A stretch of DNA of 64,000 nt from positions 5,312,001 through 5,376,000 of the forward strand of contig OZ220744.1 in assembly GCA_965116925.1 (NCBI GenBank). Reading direction: 5' to 3'. Under the pieces are notes generated by a model. That model did not search any database. It was not told the DNA's origin and worked only from the letters and a program-made list of their open reading frames with translations. Origin of the DNA: Candidatus Poribacteria bacterium. Lineage in GTDB: Bacteria; Poribacteria; WGA-4E; PCPOR2b. Made by a program: the position numbers and the translations under genes. Positions within the stretch are counted from its first letter, which is position 1. Each line of letters starts with the position of its first letter. Positions 5,487-19,879 of this stretch are shown piece after piece.

Positions 5487-6470
5487 CTATCGCAGCCACG
5501 TCCACGCGGCCTTAGTTGCTGGATAGACAAGTTCTTCTCTCAAGTGTAGTCTCTTAATTTCTGGATCTTCAATTGTGCCCCGAATCCCCTGAGCATATCG
5601 AAGCAGTTCATTGTCCGGATAGGCTAACCTTCTGGTGACTATTTGGACCGGGAGTTCTGATGAAAAACTCAACTTCTGAGGCATCTTTATATAGATCATC
5701 TCTATACGGTCAACCAGTTCTCGTTTGCCATTTACCTTCTCAAATCCTTCCTCCAGCAGAGGAGAAACTTCGTCGGCAATAGCACCTAACTTTCTAAACT
5801 CTTTCCACAACCATTTGTGGTAAGGTGCATGACGTTGATTCATCAGAAAACCAACCTTCATTGCATATTCAGCGAATCGTGCCCAATAGCAAGACGCGCT
5901 CACGTAGTCTCCTCGATCTTCTGCCCTGAAGAGATGCTTTCGCCCCCACTCCCAGAGCCAAGAAAGGCAAGCCCCCATCCGCTGCTTCCATACATCATCC
6001 GGGTATTTGGAAAACGCTCTCAAGCGCGCACTGACAATGCCAGGCTCATCGTGATAAAGCCTGCTCGGGGTTAGTTCAAACAGATACGACTCTGGTATTT
6101 GCAACCAGTTCATGGCTGACTTGGGGGGCTCTGAAAATCCGACTACAGATTCTATATAGCTACCGATTTCGATTACACCACAGGTCCTAGCGGGTGGATT
6201 CTTCCATCGAAACCCGTCAAACGCATTGGGCAGCATATCGAATACTTCCCGTAGATGCTCACCATAATCATCGAAATCATCTTTGGCAAACCACACCGTG
6301 AATCCCGGTCCCCAACCGTGATCACGAGACACCTCGTCGTCGTTCTTGTGCGCTTGCGACCCTCCACCAACTCCCACTGCCAGTCTCGGGATACACTTAG
6401 GCAATCGCTGCTCAATAGTAGGAAGCCCAATCTCCCGGAAGAATCGCTCTGATAGTTCAAATCCTTTCAT
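5487..6470 (-). CDS. DUF4037-domain protein (nucleotidyltransferase-like)
   Basis: MKGFELSERFF..GGGSQ...DDEVSRDHGWGPGF; YPDDVW; APYHKW. Confidence 0.8.
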   Translation of the reverse strand: MKGFELSERFFREIGLPTIEQRLPKCIPRLAVGVGGGSQAHKNDDEVSRDHGWGPGFTVWFAKDDFDDYGEHLREVFDMLPNAFDGFRWKNPPARTCGVIEIGSYIESVVGFSEPPKSAMNWLQIPESYLFELTPSRLYHDEPGIVSARLRAFSKYPDDVWKQRMGACLSWLWEWGRKHLFRAEDRGDYVSASCYWARFAEYAMKVGFLMNQRHAPYHKWLWKEFRKLGAIADEVSPLLEEGFEKVNGKRELVDRIEMIYIKMPQKLSFSSELPVQIVTRRLAYPDNELLRYAQGIRGTIEDPEIKRLHLREELVYPATKAAWTWLR

Positions 6471-6662
6471 AGAGGCCTCCACGAAGACATTTCTTAGATA
6501 GCAACTAATACTAGTTCCAGATCTAAAGACGACTAATTCTTTTTGAAAACCAATGGTAGACGATACCGTATTCGTGTTAGTAGCCGGTTGCTTCAAAATT
6601 TGAGTAGATATTTGGATCTGGCTGATATTATACCATACACCTAAAAAATGTTGGATACCATT

Positions 6663-6700
6663 AAAAAGCCCTGTTAGATCCTCCAACAGGGCTTTTTTTT
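6663..6700. terminator. Intrinsic terminator, potentially bidirectional
   Basis: AAAAAGCCCTGTT-loop-AACAGGGCTTTTTTTT downstream of the ABC permease. Confidence 0.8.
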
Positions 6701-8133: not shown

Positions 8134-8433
8134 TTATACATTATCATGAAATAACGAAAATGTGGTTGGTTCGACGGAGGACACCGGCGTCTCAAAATCA
8201 GGGAACAGCCAGAGTTGATTCGTCTCATCTGCCTCTGAGGTATCCTTAACAGCTAGTTCGTCAGGTGGAATCGTTGAATTGCCCCAGAAATCCATCTGCT
8301 CCACCGTTTCCACGTTCTGATTTGATGCAATACGGGCGTAGATCCGGGCGCGTTGCTCAGAGGAGATCGCTTGCGAGGCGAAGACTTCGCGCATCAATTG
8401 TATGAGTGTGTCGGTAAACAAATCTGTTTGCAT
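8134..8433 (-). CDS. 99-aa acidic protein with multiple beta-clamp-binding-motif-like peptides (putative anti-sigma or clamp ligand)
   Basis: ATG overlaps the upstream TAA (TAATG); QTDLF(2-6), QMDFW(46-50), QLWLF(73-77), TFSLF(91-95). Confidence 0.7.
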   Translation of the reverse strand: MQTDLFTDTLIQLMREVFASQAISSEQRARIYARIASNQNVETVEQMDFWGNSTIPPDELAVKDTSEADETNQLWLFPDFETPVSSVEPTTFSLFHDNV

Positions 8434-9566
8434 TATTTCAAAGGCATTACAAGATAACGAAGGTTTTGCGCCAATTGAAGGTATATCGGCGGAGAATTTT
8501 CTGCGTCTGGGTGCAGCCAAAGTGTAACATCATTTGCATCAGTATGCAGGAGTGGCTCTTTAAAAAACCAACTATCAACTGCTATCACTATCTCTGATCC
8601 CGCATACTGAATTGGCACACAGGCTTCCGATTTTCCCAAGTGAGTATTGTTTGCAACAGTCAACTGTCCATCGCTAAAATGAAACTCGGTACGACGGTGG
8701 GGATTATCCTCTACATGAATGATTCCGAGTGCCCAGAGCAACCTTTCGCGGTTCACTTTGACTTCCAAGCGGGTAGGCGCCTTTTCAGTCCTTTCAATAA
8801 TTGACAGATAATTTGGGTAATTTGCTTGCGACGGCCAGAGACATCTTAACACAACACCTTCAACCTCAAAACTCACGGCATTTTCAGTGAAATGTAGTCG
8901 GCAGACCTCTGGTTCTAAGGATTCTATAAGGTCTATCATCTTTACGCACGCTTTATAAGCCATTGCTCGTCTGGGGACTGGTGCTTCTGTGTTTGCTAAC
9001 GCACGCGCGGAGGACAACGTCAACACCGCCATCCGTTTGCCATCGGTGGTCACGATTCGGTCCTCGCCATCATGTCTATGAAAAAGTACTCCCCACATGC
9101 TAGCGCGTCGTTCCGCCCCTTCCGCGTCTGATGGTTTTTCTGATGCGAACAAAACAGTATCCAGTGCCCTCCCGAACTGCGACGCTGGAATTTCATACCC
9201 GTGTACATCGGTTAATTCTTTAAGTGCCGGATCCTGCCATTTTTCTGCGTATGTATACACGACGTGTTGGTGCTGCTCGCCTTCAATGTCCAGACACCCA
9301 TGCCTTTCGTGATGACTGAACAACAACGTCTCACTAGTCGTATATTCACAGATGCGCGGCAGGGCATCTGCGGAAATGGTTGCCGTACCGGAGATTTCAA
9401 CTTCGGCTGGAATCGTGGCGTCAATACAGAAGTTCCCATCGTCAGTATAGCATCGAAACTGTAATTGCGTCGCTTGCGCTGTTATTGACAAGTGCGCTTT
9501 CGGTTCATCAAGTTTCAAAAGTGCTAAGGCACGTTTCAACGTAGCAACCTCACAGGTGAATTTCAT
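8433..9566 (-). CDS. dnaN: Divergent DNA polymerase III beta sliding-clamp paralog
   Basis: 377 aa; MKF start after GGGAGG SD; VTTDGKRM (cf. ATDGHRL), NYPNY, C-terminal YLVMPLK; no dnaA/recF/gyrB neighbours. Confidence 0.85.
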   Translation of the reverse strand: MKFTCEVATLKRALALLKLDEPKAHLSITAQATQLQFRCYTDDGNFCIDATIPAEVEISGTATISADALPRICEYTTSETLLFSHHERHGCLDIEGEQHQHVVYTYAEKWQDPALKELTDVHGYEIPASQFGRALDTVLFASEKPSDAEGAERRASMWGVLFHRHDGEDRIVTTDGKRMAVLTLSSARALANTEAPVPRRAMAYKACVKMIDLIESLEPEVCRLHFTENAVSFEVEGVVLRCLWPSQANYPNYLSIIERTEKAPTRLEVKVNRERLLWALGIIHVEDNPHRRTEFHFSDGQLTVANNTHLGKSEACVPIQYAGSEIVIAVDSWFFKEPLLHTDANDVTLWLHPDAENSPPIYLQLAQNLRYLVMPLK

Positions 9567-9622
9567 CGGTTCCTCCCTTTTCCCCAGCGGTGCCCTATTG
9601 GGCATATTTTTCCAGTTCAAAT

Positions 9623-10180
9623 TTAAAGTAGATCCTTGAGCGATGTGTTCCGTTGTTTTAATAACCGTAACACTTCATCGCGCAAGGCTTTTCGCGCACG
9701 TTGCCGAAGAGATTTCACAGCGATCTCGCTCCGTTGGACAATTTCTGCAATTTCTCGATTCGGTGTATCTTCCAATTCACCTAACACCAGCACAGTCCGG
9801 TCAATTGGACGCAATTGAAGTAGTGCCGCTTGCAAAAATTCTGCGCTTTCGGAGCGGATTAATTGCTCGAGTGGAGCTTCTGTCGAAGCCACCGGGCTAG
9901 TAAACGCCTCGGTCATCTCAGCCACAACCGTTACCTCCAATGAAGTTACCCAGTGTCGCTGACGCTGGCGCATCAGGTCAATACATCCATTATATGCGAT
10001 GCGAAAAAGCCACGCCCGGACAGATGCAGGATCGAGCAACTCAGACCAACCTTGGTACGCTCGCAGAAAGGTTTCGGCGGTCATATCCTCGGCATCTGTT
10101 GGATTTCCCAGTAACCGCAGAATAAACCGATAAATAGCGTCAACATGTAATTCATACGCTTCGGTGAATGATGCCTCCAC
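9623..10180 (-). CDS. ECF (sigma-70 group 4) RNA polymerase sigma factor
   Basis: Region 2 DAEDMTAETFLRAY and WLFRIAYN..ID..R; region 4 REIAEIVQRSEIAVKSLRQRARKALR; GTG start. Confidence 0.92.
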   Translation of the reverse strand: MEASFTEAYELHVDAIYRFILRLLGNPTDAEDMTAETFLRAYQGWSELLDPASVRAWLFRIAYNGCIDLMRQRQRHWVTSLEVTVVAEMTEAFTSPVASTEAPLEQLIRSESAEFLQAALLQLRPIDRTVLVLGELEDTPNREIAEIVQRSEIAVKSLRQRARKALRDEVLRLLKQRNTSLKDLL

Positions 10181-10215: not shown

Positions 10216-10246
10216 ATTATGACGAAGAAAACGGGATCAGGCATCG
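10216..10246 (-). promoter_or_regulatory. Candidate ECF-type (autoregulatory?) promoter
   Basis: CGATGC-16nt-CGTCATAAT upstream of the sigma gene; CGTC is a common ECF -10 element. Confidence 0.3.
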
Positions 10247-10264
10247 AAAATAATGCTTAAACGC

Positions 10265-10298
10265 AAAAGGGGATTCCCAATCCATTGAGAATCCCCTT
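10265..10298 (-). terminator. Intrinsic terminator separating the upstream DUF4037 gene from the ECF unit
   Basis: AAGGGGATTC...GAATCCCCTT inverted repeat with a short U-tract on the minus strand. Confidence 0.7.
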
Positions 10299-10334: not shown

Positions 10335-11399
10335 TCAATCATCATAGATATCAATCAAACACCGGGATCGCTGCGCGCTGCTCAAGACATCCGTACTATC
10401 CACAAACTGATCGATGCTCCCTACCAGCGGTTGCCTTTTCAGCCACTCATCTTGGATAGCTGCCAAGCACGCCTCAGCAAATCGATCGCCTCCGAGCACC
10501 CGAAAGGGACGTTTATAGAACAAGCGGGTTTCAGGATCGACGGGAGGGGTAAGGTTCAGTCGGTTGTAGCAACAGGCGATATATTCGTAGGCACAACAAA
10601 GTGCTGCTTCTCTGGCAGGATAGTCCGTTGCCTTGAGTGCTGCCTCCAGATGCGGGGCGAGTCTAGGAGCCATGCGGAGATTTCGGAATGCACTGCCCAG
10701 CCACTTGCTATACGGAGCATATCGCCGCTCTATCAGAAAGCAGAGTCTCATGAGATCGCGTATGATACGCGCTGTCAGGATCCGTGAACCGAGCTCATCA
10801 CCTACTTCAGCCGTGCGGCCAACAAACGCCTCTTCTTGAGCGATCCGACGCCACTGACAAGCCAAGAGCCATAGCCAAATATCGTCTGGATACCACTCCA
10901 GTTTATTGCGGACACGCTTTAGGTCTCCGGCGGGATCATGAAAGACCGCACCCGCTGTCACCTCTAGCAATAGCTGTTGTGGTGTTGTAAGCCAGCTTTG
11001 GACAGTAATATCCACTTGCAGGTCGAATCCCAGATGCGATTTAAGCCATTCCCCAAGGGGTGCAACATGCACATGGTGCTGAACGGCGACCTCATCCCAA
11101 CCGAAGTACACAGGCCATCCGTGAAACTCCTCTGGCAGGCTGGAATCGATAATCGTGCGAACGACATCTACATCAGAGGCTGCCACAAAAAGGTGTAGTC
11201 GTGGTCCCCAACCATGGTCAGTGGATCGTGGGGTATCAAAACCGAGGACATCCGACCCCGAACCTAGCCTCGCTGCACTGTGGGTTCGTTCTTCCATGAG
11301 TGGACGAACAACTTCAATGTAGAACAGCCGAGATAAATCAATGCCGCTTACAAAGTCACCGCCATCGTTGGATGTATTGTTGGTTTTAGTCGAGACCAT
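10335..11399 (-). CDS. DUF4037-domain protein (second paralog)
   Basis: GIDLSRLFY; GSGSDVLGFDTPRSTDHGWGPRL; WYPDDIW; YAPYSKWLG. Confidence 0.85.
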   Translation of the reverse strand: MVSTKTNNTSNDGGDFVSGIDLSRLFYIEVVRPLMEERTHSAARLGSGSDVLGFDTPRSTDHGWGPRLHLFVAASDVDVVRTIIDSSLPEEFHGWPVYFGWDEVAVQHHVHVAPLGEWLKSHLGFDLQVDITVQSWLTTPQQLLLEVTAGAVFHDPAGDLKRVRNKLEWYPDDIWLWLLACQWRRIAQEEAFVGRTAEVGDELGSRILTARIIRDLMRLCFLIERRYAPYSKWLGSAFRNLRMAPRLAPHLEAALKATDYPAREAALCCAYEYIACCYNRLNLTPPVDPETRLFYKRPFRVLGGDRFAEACLAAIQDEWLKRQPLVGSIDQFVDSTDVLSSAQRSRCLIDIYDD

Positions 11400-17720: not shown

Positions 17721-18761
17721 ATGAAGTTTTATCACGGCACAACCTTACAGAATGCGATTAGAATTGCCGAGATGGGCTTTCTACCAAGGAAGGGCGTAGT
17801 CTGGTTCACCACGAGTAAGCATCGTGCCCAACGCCGCGCCAAACAAAAAGCGCGTAAAACCGCTAGTCCGCCGTTTGTCTTTACCTGCGAAATCAACCCC
17901 CAAGAATTGTATAACCGCCTTGGAAAACATCTCGTTATGCGCAGCAAGGGATTTCTTGCTATCCGGCGGCGTGTCCCGCCAACGGTGATACTGAATTCAT
18001 CCGAACTAATTGCTAGGTGGGTAAGCCACATACTCCAAGGCGAATCCTATGAGAGTATTAGCCCGAATCACCCTGGAATAAATCGATTGTCGCGCTGGGT
18101 GGAAAACCGCATGAAAGCTGGCACGGACAATGCCATCCGTCCAAAGGAACTGTCACAGAGGCTGCAGCAATGGCTGCCCAATTTTTTTCGAGGGGTCAAG
18201 ATCGTACCTGAAGATTTACGCTTCGACTATTTTCCTGAACTCGCTGATTTTGAAACAGAACCTTTACCAGAGCTGGTTGATTCACGGGAGGAAAACGCAC
18301 TTGATGCTCTCGCCGCTGCGAAACCGCAGCGACGCATCCGCGGTCTTGAACTGCTAGCACAACTTGAACACGAGGATCTCTATGAATGGTGCACGCTTTT
18401 ACTCTTGGATGAGTCAGTAGAGGTTCGCATCGCTGCCTTACAAACAATAGTCCATTGTGACGATGGAGATCCGGAGGCTCTCCTACCATTTGCCGAATCT
18501 CAAAATAAGCGGATTCGGGCAGCAGCGATTGCCGCCCTTGCCAAGCATTCCGCCGAAGACGCGTCCCGTTGGTTTCAGCGGGGATTGAAAGACCGCGAGG
18601 CGTGTGTACGCCTTGAAACAGCAGCTCTGCTTCCAAAACTCGATGTAACCCAACACCGGGAAATTTTTGAACTCGCGCTCTATGACCCGAATCCTGCAAT
18701 CAAGCATCTTGCGGAGAAACTCACTGCGGGGAAGGGCTATGCAGATGCAAGGTTAGGGTAA
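17721..18761 (+). CDS. KptA/Tpt1-like (ART-fold) N-domain + HEAT-repeat protein, copy 1
   Basis: FYHGTT..I...GFLP...VWFTTS...RVPPTVI; HEAT repeats DESVEVRIAAL, NKRIRAAAIAAL, DREACVRLETA, DPNPAIK. Confidence 0.75.
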   Translation: MKFYHGTTLQNAIRIAEMGFLPRKGVVWFTTSKHRAQRRAKQKARKTASPPFVFTCEINPQELYNRLGKHLVMRSKGFLAIRRRVPPTVILNSSELIARWVSHILQGESYESISPNHPGINRLSRWVENRMKAGTDNAIRPKELSQRLQQWLPNFFRGVKIVPEDLRFDYFPELADFETEPLPELVDSREENALDALAAAKPQRRIRGLELLAQLEHEDLYEWCTLLLLDESVEVRIAALQTIVHCDDGDPEALLPFAESQNKRIRAAAIAALAKHSAEDASRWFQRGLKDREACVRLETAALLPKLDVTQHREIFELALYDPNPAIKHLAEKLTAGKGYADARLG

Positions 18762-18820
18762 TGAAATTGACGCTTTAGCGAAGGGAATTCACCTGAATCC
18801 CAAGAATGGAGGAGGAAGTT

Positions 18821-19879
18821 ATGAGGTTCTACCACGGTACAACCTTACGGAGCGCGATTAAAATTGCCGAGATGGGCTTTCTCCCAAGGAAGGGTGCGGT
18901 CTGGTTCACCACGAGTAAGCAATATGCCCAAGGACGTGCCAAGCAAAAAGCGCGTAGAACGGGGAGCTCACCATTTGTGCTTACCTGTGAAATTAATGTC
19001 TCAGAATTGTATAACCGCCTTGGAAAAAATCTAGTTATGCGTGGTGGGGGTGTCGTTGCTATCCGAGGGCGTGTTCCACGGACGGTGATACGTTCACACT
19101 TTACGTTAGAACTACTCAATTCGCCCGAACACATTGCCAGGTGGGTGAACCAGAAGCTCGGACGCAAATCCTATGAAGGTATTAGTCCTCGCCACCCCGG
19201 AATAGATCGGTTGTCGCGTTGGATGGAAAATCGCGCTAACTCTGGCACCGGCAGCACCATCCGTCCAGAAGAATTTGCACAGAAGCTACATCAATGGCTG
19301 CCCGACTTTTTCCAAGGGATTGAAATCACGCCTGAAGATTTGCGTTTCGACTGTTTTCCCGAACCGGCTGAAATTGAGCCAACCCCTCCGTCAGAACCGG
19401 TGGATTCACGGGAAGAAAACGCCTTTGATGACCTCGCTGCCCCAAAACCGCAACGACGCATTCGCGGTCTTAAACGACTGGCACGGCTTGGAAACGAAGA
19501 TCTTTATGATTGGTGCACGCTATTGCTCTCGGACGAGTCATTGGAAGTTCGCATTGCCGCCTTACAAACAATAGCCCATTGCGACGACGGAGATCCAGAC
19601 GTTATACTGCCATTCGCCGAATCTCAAAATAAGCGAATTCGGGCAGCAGCAATTGCCGCGCTTGCCAAGCATTCCGTCGAAGACGCTTACCGCTGGTTTG
19701 AACAGGGCTTGAAAGACCGTGAAGTATGTGTGCGCCTTGAAACAGCAGCCGTGCTTCCAACATTGGATGTAACCCAACACCGGGAGATTTTTGAACTCGC
19801 GCTTTATGACCCCAATCCAGAGATTAAGCGACTAGCACAGAATCTCACGGCAAAGAAAGGTTATGCTAATGCTAGGTAA
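18821..19879 (+). CDS. KptA/Tpt1-like (ART-fold) N-domain + HEAT-repeat protein, copy 2
   Basis: Colinear paralog of 17721-18761; GGAGGA SD. Confidence 0.75.
   Translation: MRFYHGTTLRSAIKIAEMGFLPRKGAVWFTTSKQYAQGRAKQKARRTGSSPFVLTCEINVSELYNRLGKNLVMRGGGVVAIRGRVPRTVIRSHFTLELLNSPEHIARWVNQKLGRKSYEGISPRHPGIDRLSRWMENRANSGTGSTIRPEEFAQKLHQWLPDFFQGIEITPEDLRFDCFPEPAEIEPTPPSEPVDSREENAFDDLAAPKPQRRIRGLKRLARLGNEDLYDWCTLLLSDESLEVRIAALQTIAHCDDGDPDVILPFAESQNKRIRAAAIAALAKHSVEDAYRWFEQGLKDREVCVRLETAAVLPTLDVTQHREIFELALYDPNPEIKRLAQNLTAKKGYANAR

Follow-up and report, generated by a model that had tools for sequence, protein, structure and literature searches.

A conserved small acidic protein with clamp-binding-like motifs in a Poribacteria sigma factor–DnaN cassette: a putative anti-sigma regulator

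What might a 99-residue protein do when its gene lies directly behind those of an ECF sigma factor and a second DnaN? We considered this question for a small ORF (positions 8134..8433, minus strand) in the window, a 64,000-nucleotide stretch of a Candidatus Poribacteria genome. The ORF, four peptides reminiscent of clamp-binding motifs (QTDLF at residues 2–6, QMDFW at 46–50, QLWLF at 73–77 and TFSLF at 91–95) and an N-terminal helix sequence were all found where the original prediction had put them. The product is apparently a conserved, undescribed regulator of the sigma–clamp cassette, and we read it as a putative two-helix anti-sigma factor with a multivalent clamp-binding tail.

Judged by its substitution pattern, the ORF is a real gene, since its dN/dS is about 0.4: in pooled pairwise comparisons of 19 genome loci, taken as two groups of 8 and 11, the whole ORF gave 0.39 and 0.36, and the N-terminal 38 residues 0.15 and 0.34. 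Its ATG shares one nucleotide with the stop codon of the clamp gene (TAATG). We discarded a longer, 128-residue version from a TTG start, which would run into the clamp gene and disagrees with the homologs, whose start is the coupled ATG. Contigs from four RNA runs of one study span the ORF at about 89–93% identity, though they cover its neighbours as well and DNA carry-over is possible, and therefore they do not demonstrate expression. The database held 85 matches to the protein, itself counted; its relatives are Candidatus Poribacteria, with none in the viral contigs or annotated phages searched. Fused forms were absent from the 50%-identity representatives (12 matches): P0091–P0093 proved to be unrelated repeats, and P0088, P0089 and P0081 look frameshifted or truncated.

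AlphaFold2, given a 34-row alignment, predicted helices at residues 3–18 and 25–39 and no secondary structure beyond residue 39, with a pLDDT of about 77–82 for residues 1–40 and 48–60 for later residues, which bears out the helical N-terminal part first read by eye. This two-helix unit (residues 1–39; 8317..8433, minus strand) is present in all orthologs examined; in the family alignment A12 the pattern occurs in 26 of 26 rows and R34 is invariant. The tail, residues 39–99, holds 13 D/E against a single K/R. Searches for a known family returned nothing significant for the small protein in Pfam, in PDB sequences with two alignments or in Foldseek; VIA-align reached a best Z of 3.2, to generic helices, and the ESM Atlas offered a zf-HC2 cluster at 0.77, under the useful level.

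Within its Poribacteria cassette the small-protein gene invariably comes third, after those of the ECF sigma and the second DnaN. A search of 61 genomes matched 24, comprising 21 intact (22 loci), two broken by deletion and one chance match, and the full-length clamp paralog turned up in precisely those 21 genomes, at the 22 loci, that have the intact small ORF. The order of the three genes is fixed at all 22 intact loci, and the genes flanking the cassette differ between loci. When 176 genomes of the phylum were scanned, the small-protein profile found matches in 23, whereas the sigma profile, at E 1e-45 or better, found them in 25 and brought in G065, G066 and G067. Weak matches in G060 and two extra ones in G015 were set aside as chance. 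One genome holds two intact cassettes (G053:C1:1387k and G053:C3:1077k), and two cassettes have decayed through internal deletion, their promoter and gene ends remaining (G033:C2:5257781-5258472 and G039:C28:106573-106975). The paralogs of genus g5 (family f1) are closer to those of g11 (family f3) than to those of g1. Several of them also have an upstream neighbour in common, and together this hints at transfer.

We next consider the peptides themselves, which had been counted as three to four clamp-like motifs separated by acidic, probably disordered linkers. Motif 3 (QLWLFP, residues 73–78; 8200..8217, minus strand) is the best-conserved: QLWLF is present in 87 of 106 distinct homologs, a mostly closely related set, and its dN/dS is 0.04 and 0.05 in the two locus groups, against 0.71 and 0.48 for the linkers. 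Motif 2 (QMDFW; 8284..8298, minus strand) has a dN/dS of 0.04 in one group and an undefined value in the other; its first residue is Q in 71 of the 106 homologs, 15 have GMELW, and distant orthologs have QL[RYH]LW, QLPLF or QLLLF. Motif 1 (QTDLF; 8416..8430, minus strand) gave 0.07 and 0.67; it fits Qx[DE][LFI]F in 82 homologs, has S at position 5 in 10 and could not be scored in 10 others, and it is missing in distant members. The fourth peptide, TFSLF (8149..8163, minus strand), lacks the Q, keeps only a conserved Leu (variants include FSLPL, SPLL and YPLF) and evolves like a linker (0.66 and 0.52). On the homolog counts and dN/dS we therefore rate motif 3 as solid, motif 2 as fairly solid, motif 1 as lineage-limited and the fourth as unsupported as a clamp motif, so that two to three of the proposed motifs survive, and the expectation that motifs would be kept while linkers vary holds most clearly for motif 3. 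The placement in disordered, acidic sequence likewise applies to motifs 2 and 3, which fall in the predicted unstructured segment, but not to motif 1, which begins helix 1 and overlaps the predicted helix at 3–18. Three relaxed motifs were counted in 62 of the homologs, two in 31, a single one in 12 and none in one.

Such a cluster is rare in this genome. With patterns picked post hoc, the sequence already having been seen, three Q..[LF][FW] peptides occurred in 0 of 15,594 non-overlapping 99-residue proteome windows (cut from crude greedy ORF calls of the same genome, 4,522 ORFs of at least 150 residues) and in 2 of 100,000 shuffles; for three copies of the looser Q..[LMF][FLW] the counts were 2 windows and 56 shuffles. 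The strict consensus QL[SD]LF or QLxLx[LF] is matched nowhere in the small protein, which has no QL[SD]L[FL] pentamer, and what stands above chance and is conserved is the relaxed, post hoc form Q-x-x-hydrophobic-aromatic, in three copies. In L010:1501-1851 (G021), P0059 and P0061, the motif 3 module is duplicated in tandem, the additional copy reading RL[SA]LF. In addition, 11 ORFs of G000 have a Q[LM]x[LMF][FW] peptide close to the C-terminus, for example QMDLF, QLTLF, QLPLF or QLELF (G000:C1 658602, 1503667, 2515781, 3342615, 4082937, 4830006 and others), which shows that the genome does make use of such relaxed motifs. Binding of a clamp by the small protein's tail is a prediction that we consider very probable.

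The adjoining gene supports this reading of the motifs, as it encodes a DnaN paralog that retains the peptide pocket. The paralog (377 residues; 8433..9566, minus strand) was modelled by AlphaFold2 as a beta clamp of three domains (pLDDT 84), and Foldseek matched it to beta clamps at E 1e-24 to 1e-26, as did profiles. It is about 23% identical to the host's housekeeping DnaN, encoded elsewhere in the genome between ORFs that we named dnaA-like and recF-like by reading their translations, and on plasmids the paralog matched nothing but ordinary dnaN, with an identity of about 23%. Across 48 rows (47 paralogs and the housekeeping copy) the invariant columns include R154, T174, G176, R178 and M374. 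Going by Met362, R152 and the TDGxR numbering, we read these as peptide-pocket residues, and the pocket would then be the most conserved part of the clamp. Loop I, by comparison, has been replaced, with the acidic LDEPKAHL standing for the housekeeping GRNTLPIL; the Arg equivalent to E. coli R24 is gone here and kept in the distant cassette L131. In the parts of the clamp literature cited here, R152 belongs to the pocket and the loop I Arg contacts DNA and helps clamp loading (PMC5042465), and Met362 is the pocket gate (PMC11621423). Because this Arg has given way to an acidic loop, the paralog of the window could be a decoy rather than a functional clamp.

The first gene encodes an ECF sigma factor of 185 residues with sigma2 and sigma4 (9623..10180, minus strand; Sigma70_r4_2 match at E 4e-12). 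Its promoter, CGATGC-N16-CGTC(A/T)TA (10218..10247, minus strand), is a putative autoregulatory site. This pattern was matched in 20 of 21 cassette loci and by a looser pattern in the remaining genome; the promoter is visible upstream of 7 of the 8 distant sigmas displayed and of those of G065 and G066, and was not seen upstream of the G067 cassette. The site, with its CGTC −10 box, is conserved down to 43–46% sigma identity. A matrix scan of the genome at 17 bits or above, using a matrix trained on cassette copies so that divergent targets could be missed, returned two sites (control, one): the cassette at 35.3 bits and an antisense site within an ORF at 25.2. Since the single strong intergenic site lies before the cassette, the clamp and the small protein appear to be the sole evident output, and the evident regulon is the cassette itself as far as a matrix of such training can tell. 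None of six off-cassette matches precedes a cassette, five being within ORFs, and G000 has one further exact match. The sections of the ECF literature used here name as hallmarks a −10 box with CGT, control of the sigma gene by its own product and an anti-sigma factor in the same transcript, the last being usual for autoregulated ECFs (PMC8103513). A terminator-like hairpin of 14 pairs with a T tail (10267..10298, minus strand) lies just upstream of the promoter, where it may insulate the cassette; it is found upstream of 8 of 21 cassette loci, and the two terminator-like sites found equal the number in shuffles. In the sigma–clamp spacer (window 9550–9620; L038–L044), several relatives carry a second CCGATGCC(T)-like −35 block lacking a −10 box, which is deleted in the window genome.

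Distant cassettes show what is held constant and what is exchanged. Scanning metagenomes with the sigma alignment yielded 25 loci, of which 10 are orthologs; ORFs were listed for 9 of these 10, and contigs other than L129, L131 and L133/L135 (L135 repeats L133) end too early. Where it is visible, a small third gene follows the clamp in five distant cassettes: L129, L131, L133, G065 and G067. The small proteins of L129, L131 and L133 align with the family by hhalign at E 6e-5. In the distant small proteins the two-helix pattern is present and motif 1 absent, and the motifs carried are QLPLF, QLLLF, QLLLHL, QMELPF and QL/IxLPGF; several of these (QLPLF, QLLLF, QMELPF) are clearer than those of the window's protein, which strengthens the case for a multivalent clamp-like tail. 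Counted across 11 divergent members with post hoc patterns, of which LPGF was added by eye, clamp-like motifs numbered 22 against 1.45 expected from shuffles, two of the members having one motif only (P 0.04–0.06). The Q-led motifs thus differ, yet recur in members only about 20% identical, always beside a clamp gene.

In these same cassettes the clamp has been swapped. L129 and L131 are 75% identical in the sigma and 69% in the small-protein helices but only 28% in the clamp; therefore, the helices follow the sigma, and sigma and small protein behave as a fixed pair with the clamp as exchangeable cargo, an argument that consists of one clean comparison. The L131 clamp falls within the housekeeping clade, at 61% to the G067 housekeeping copy, and the G067 cassette clamp is also canonical-type, 49% identical to that separate copy, though it has no close sister with a divergent clamp. 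Canonical-type DnaN stands in place of the divergent paralog in cassettes L131:1068-2204 and L181:787-1881, suggesting gene replacement.

Do the helices that track the sigma also inhibit it? The original prediction had noted a weak anti-sigma resemblance, and this is favoured by the gene context and by the helices staying with the sigma when the clamp is swapped, but not by sequence evidence. RskA_N matched 1 of 34 members at E=0.069, and a genome search with it gave no match above the cut-off. Compared by hhalign with a set of 30 zinc-type anti-sigma domains taken from five genomes, the helices fell in the right register, onto the last two helices of that domain (ASD helices 3–4), with a score of 11.95 and E 0.042; however, that score was reached by 7 of 200 column shuffles and equalled by a single clamp window. 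The HxxxCxxC motif is absent, and the model has two helices only, not the three-plus-fourth bundle of class I anti-sigmas. The NepR and CnrY profiles (PF18557 and PF17524; short, insensitive) left the cassette loci of five genomes unmatched at E up to 10.

The anatomy agrees better with class II anti-sigmas, which are described, in the excerpts available, as two helices embracing sigma, the classes having little common sequence (PMC6101532, PMC7406223). Given both points the small protein fits, although the fit is no proof. Like NepR and CnrY it has two short N-terminal helices and belongs to the operon of an ECF sigma that appears autoregulated by synteny and promoter; it shows no detectable sequence similarity to them, has neither the transmembrane sensor of CnrY nor the PhyR-like partner of NepR, and differs further in its acidic tail of clamp-motif-like peptides and in the clamp gene between sigma and regulator. 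We consider it fairly likely that the helices bind sigma.

Taken together, these data favour a regulatory function, namely the sensing of clamp status for the sigma factor, over the bridging of clamps: the small protein probably holds the sigma in check while its tail grips a clamp. The two N-terminal helices would fold around the partner ECF sigma and keep it inactive, as class II anti-sigmas do, and the acidic, disordered tail would dock its two or three motifs in the pocket of DnaN, either the housekeeping or the cassette copy. With free pockets present, the anti-sigma would be kept active or shielded from proteolysis, the latter being a guess on our part. If pockets were blocked, whether by pocket-binding antibiotics, toxins or the proteins of phages or mobile elements, or if clamps became scarce, the sigma would be released and would transcribe its own operon, supplying a spare clamp and more anti-sigma and so closing a negative feedback loop. 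We infer this sign of the switch from the output, since a sigma freed by clamp binding would make the loop self-amplifying. The logic of the cassette is well supported, while for the full scheme, a two-helix anti-sigma whose tail reads clamp pockets to regulate a three-gene clamp-homeostasis cassette, we put the chances at about even. Against it count the atypical Trp in the motifs, the G in place of Q in motif 2 of 15 homologs, the want of any strict QL[SD]LF and a sequence and fold link to known anti-sigmas that is not significant. The more specific proposal that the anti-sigma is a replication-stress sensor, reading clamp-pocket occupancy directly and independently of RecA/LexA to induce a spare or decoy clamp, is plausible but falls somewhat short of even odds.

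A parallel to such an output is found in resistance to DnaN-targeting antibiotics. In the passages of these studies that we cite, an extra dose of dnaN protects against griselimycin, a pocket-binding antibiotic (PMC11621423), and producers carry second dnaN copies (PMC10817943). The griR, mypR and dnaN amplification systems therein resemble the cassette in an extra DnaN that plausibly counters pocket inhibitors (PMC11621423, PMC10817943); unlike griR and mypR, the cassette clamp has its own sigma and promoter and is about 23% identical to the host DnaN. ORF lists of the window and of the 4-kb flanks of five loci contained no NRPS-like ORF that would point to a biosynthetic cluster, as for GriR and MypR.

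Other arrangements of the same three proteins can be imagined. In one, an unlikely one, the small protein is a co-activator that raises transcription by tying RNA polymerase or the sigma to a clamp loaded on DNA, in the way of gp33 with gp55 and gp45 in phage T4 or of MuC with DnaN. The trio of sigma, clamp and small acidic motif-bearing protein is indeed that of T4 late transcription (PMC9690074, PMC12867686, in part). The sigma itself carries a conserved C-terminal extension (window 9623–9680, minus strand) that closes with S[LI][KE]DL[FL] at the stop; [DE]L[FL] ends most full-length homologs, a C-terminal DL[FL] is found in 3 of 4,522 genome ORFs, and a similar ending in 1 of 34 other sigma-like matches of the genome. 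This tail, ending in DLF, DLL or DFLS, recalls the C-terminal LDFL that gp55 and gp33 use, as far as the cited text describes it (PMC9690074), and it could act as a ligand of the clamp pocket or form a short structural helix. The phage Mu proteins C and Mor are similar in being small and tied to transcription, with more than one clamp motif, including an N-terminal Qx[D/E][L/M]F at residues 2–6; QTDLF at those residues resembles the QHDLF of MuC (PMC12867686, in part). However, T4 late promoters lack a −35 element and their sigma lacks region 4, whereas the cassette is chromosomal, with a complete ECF sigma that has sigma4 and a promoter with a conserved −35 box; its only evident target is its own operon, and we found no sequence link to T4. 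Nor is there a Mor-family Pfam match in 34 members or a predicted DNA-binding domain, and motif 1, missing in distant members, is dispensable there. The paralog has lost the loop I Arg, a loading aid in the account cited (PMC5042465), and a co-activator would leave the cassette with no other negative regulator.

It is less likely again that the small protein is a toxin or replication brake that poisons clamps in the manner of SocB or RipA, in which case the clamp made alongside it would act as decoy or immunity and the sigma would control both. Multivalent motifs could outcompete polymerases, the gene is translationally coupled to that of the clamp, the cassette is patchily distributed (present in 7 of the 19 other genomes from this genus), and the two-motif MuC is lethal when overexpressed, according to the section cited (PMC12867686). 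SocB and RipA are likewise small, stress-response-tied proteins that act on the DnaN pocket (PMC9690074, PMC12795458, in part), but no homology to them was found, and here a sigma and a clamp take the partner role that an antitoxin has there. A toxin also leaves unexplained why the N-terminal helices track the sigma rather than the clamp, the cassettes of G033 and G039 have decayed through deletion, and overexpression toxicity is expected of the regulator as well.

A plain anti-sigma, whose aromatic peptides function in sigma binding or proteolysis and look like clamp motifs by coincidence, we regard as more doubtful still: the unmatched strict consensus, the loss of Q in several lineages and the conserved, non-consensus W and P speak for it, but differing Q-led motifs (QLPLF, QLLLF, QLLLHL, QMELPF) recur at only about 20% identity, the clamp gene always adjoins, and the pocket is its most conserved part. 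Least probable is a helix-mediated homodimer that cross-links clamps or aids their storage or assembly while the clamp paralog restrains sigma through its DLF-like tail, a use for which the widespread [DE]L[FL] ending, rare among the genome's ORFs, and the weak binding of short LF peptides to subsite 1 (reported in the cited part of PMC11621423) would be suited, but the sigma tail lacks a Q and distant sigmas add residues (DFLS, DLLK, ELLELE), which fits a short structural helix.

In the full-text literature searched, which took in few subscription papers, we found no description of an ECF–dnaN cassette or of Poribacteria clamp paralogs, and none of the ECF sigma systems found there is known to receive input from the replisome. 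Were the regulator reading correct, a protein of 100 residues would convert clamp availability into a transcriptional signal, and attack on the clamp pocket would be a real selective pressure on uncultured Poribacteria. Promoter, sigma, small protein and clamp are together small enough to be rebuilt in a laboratory strain, where they could report clamp occupancy in living cells and flag inhibitors of the clamp, which forms an antibiotic target class.

The surroundings of the cassette have features of their own. Two DUF4037 genes lie on either side of the cassette region, one on each (window 5487–6686 and 10335–11399), with a similar flank in L032 and L035. Further along (window 17721–19879, plus strand), two tandem paralogs combine an N-terminal FYHGTT segment, presumably ADP-ribosyltransferase-like from its look, with C-terminal HEAT-like repeats.
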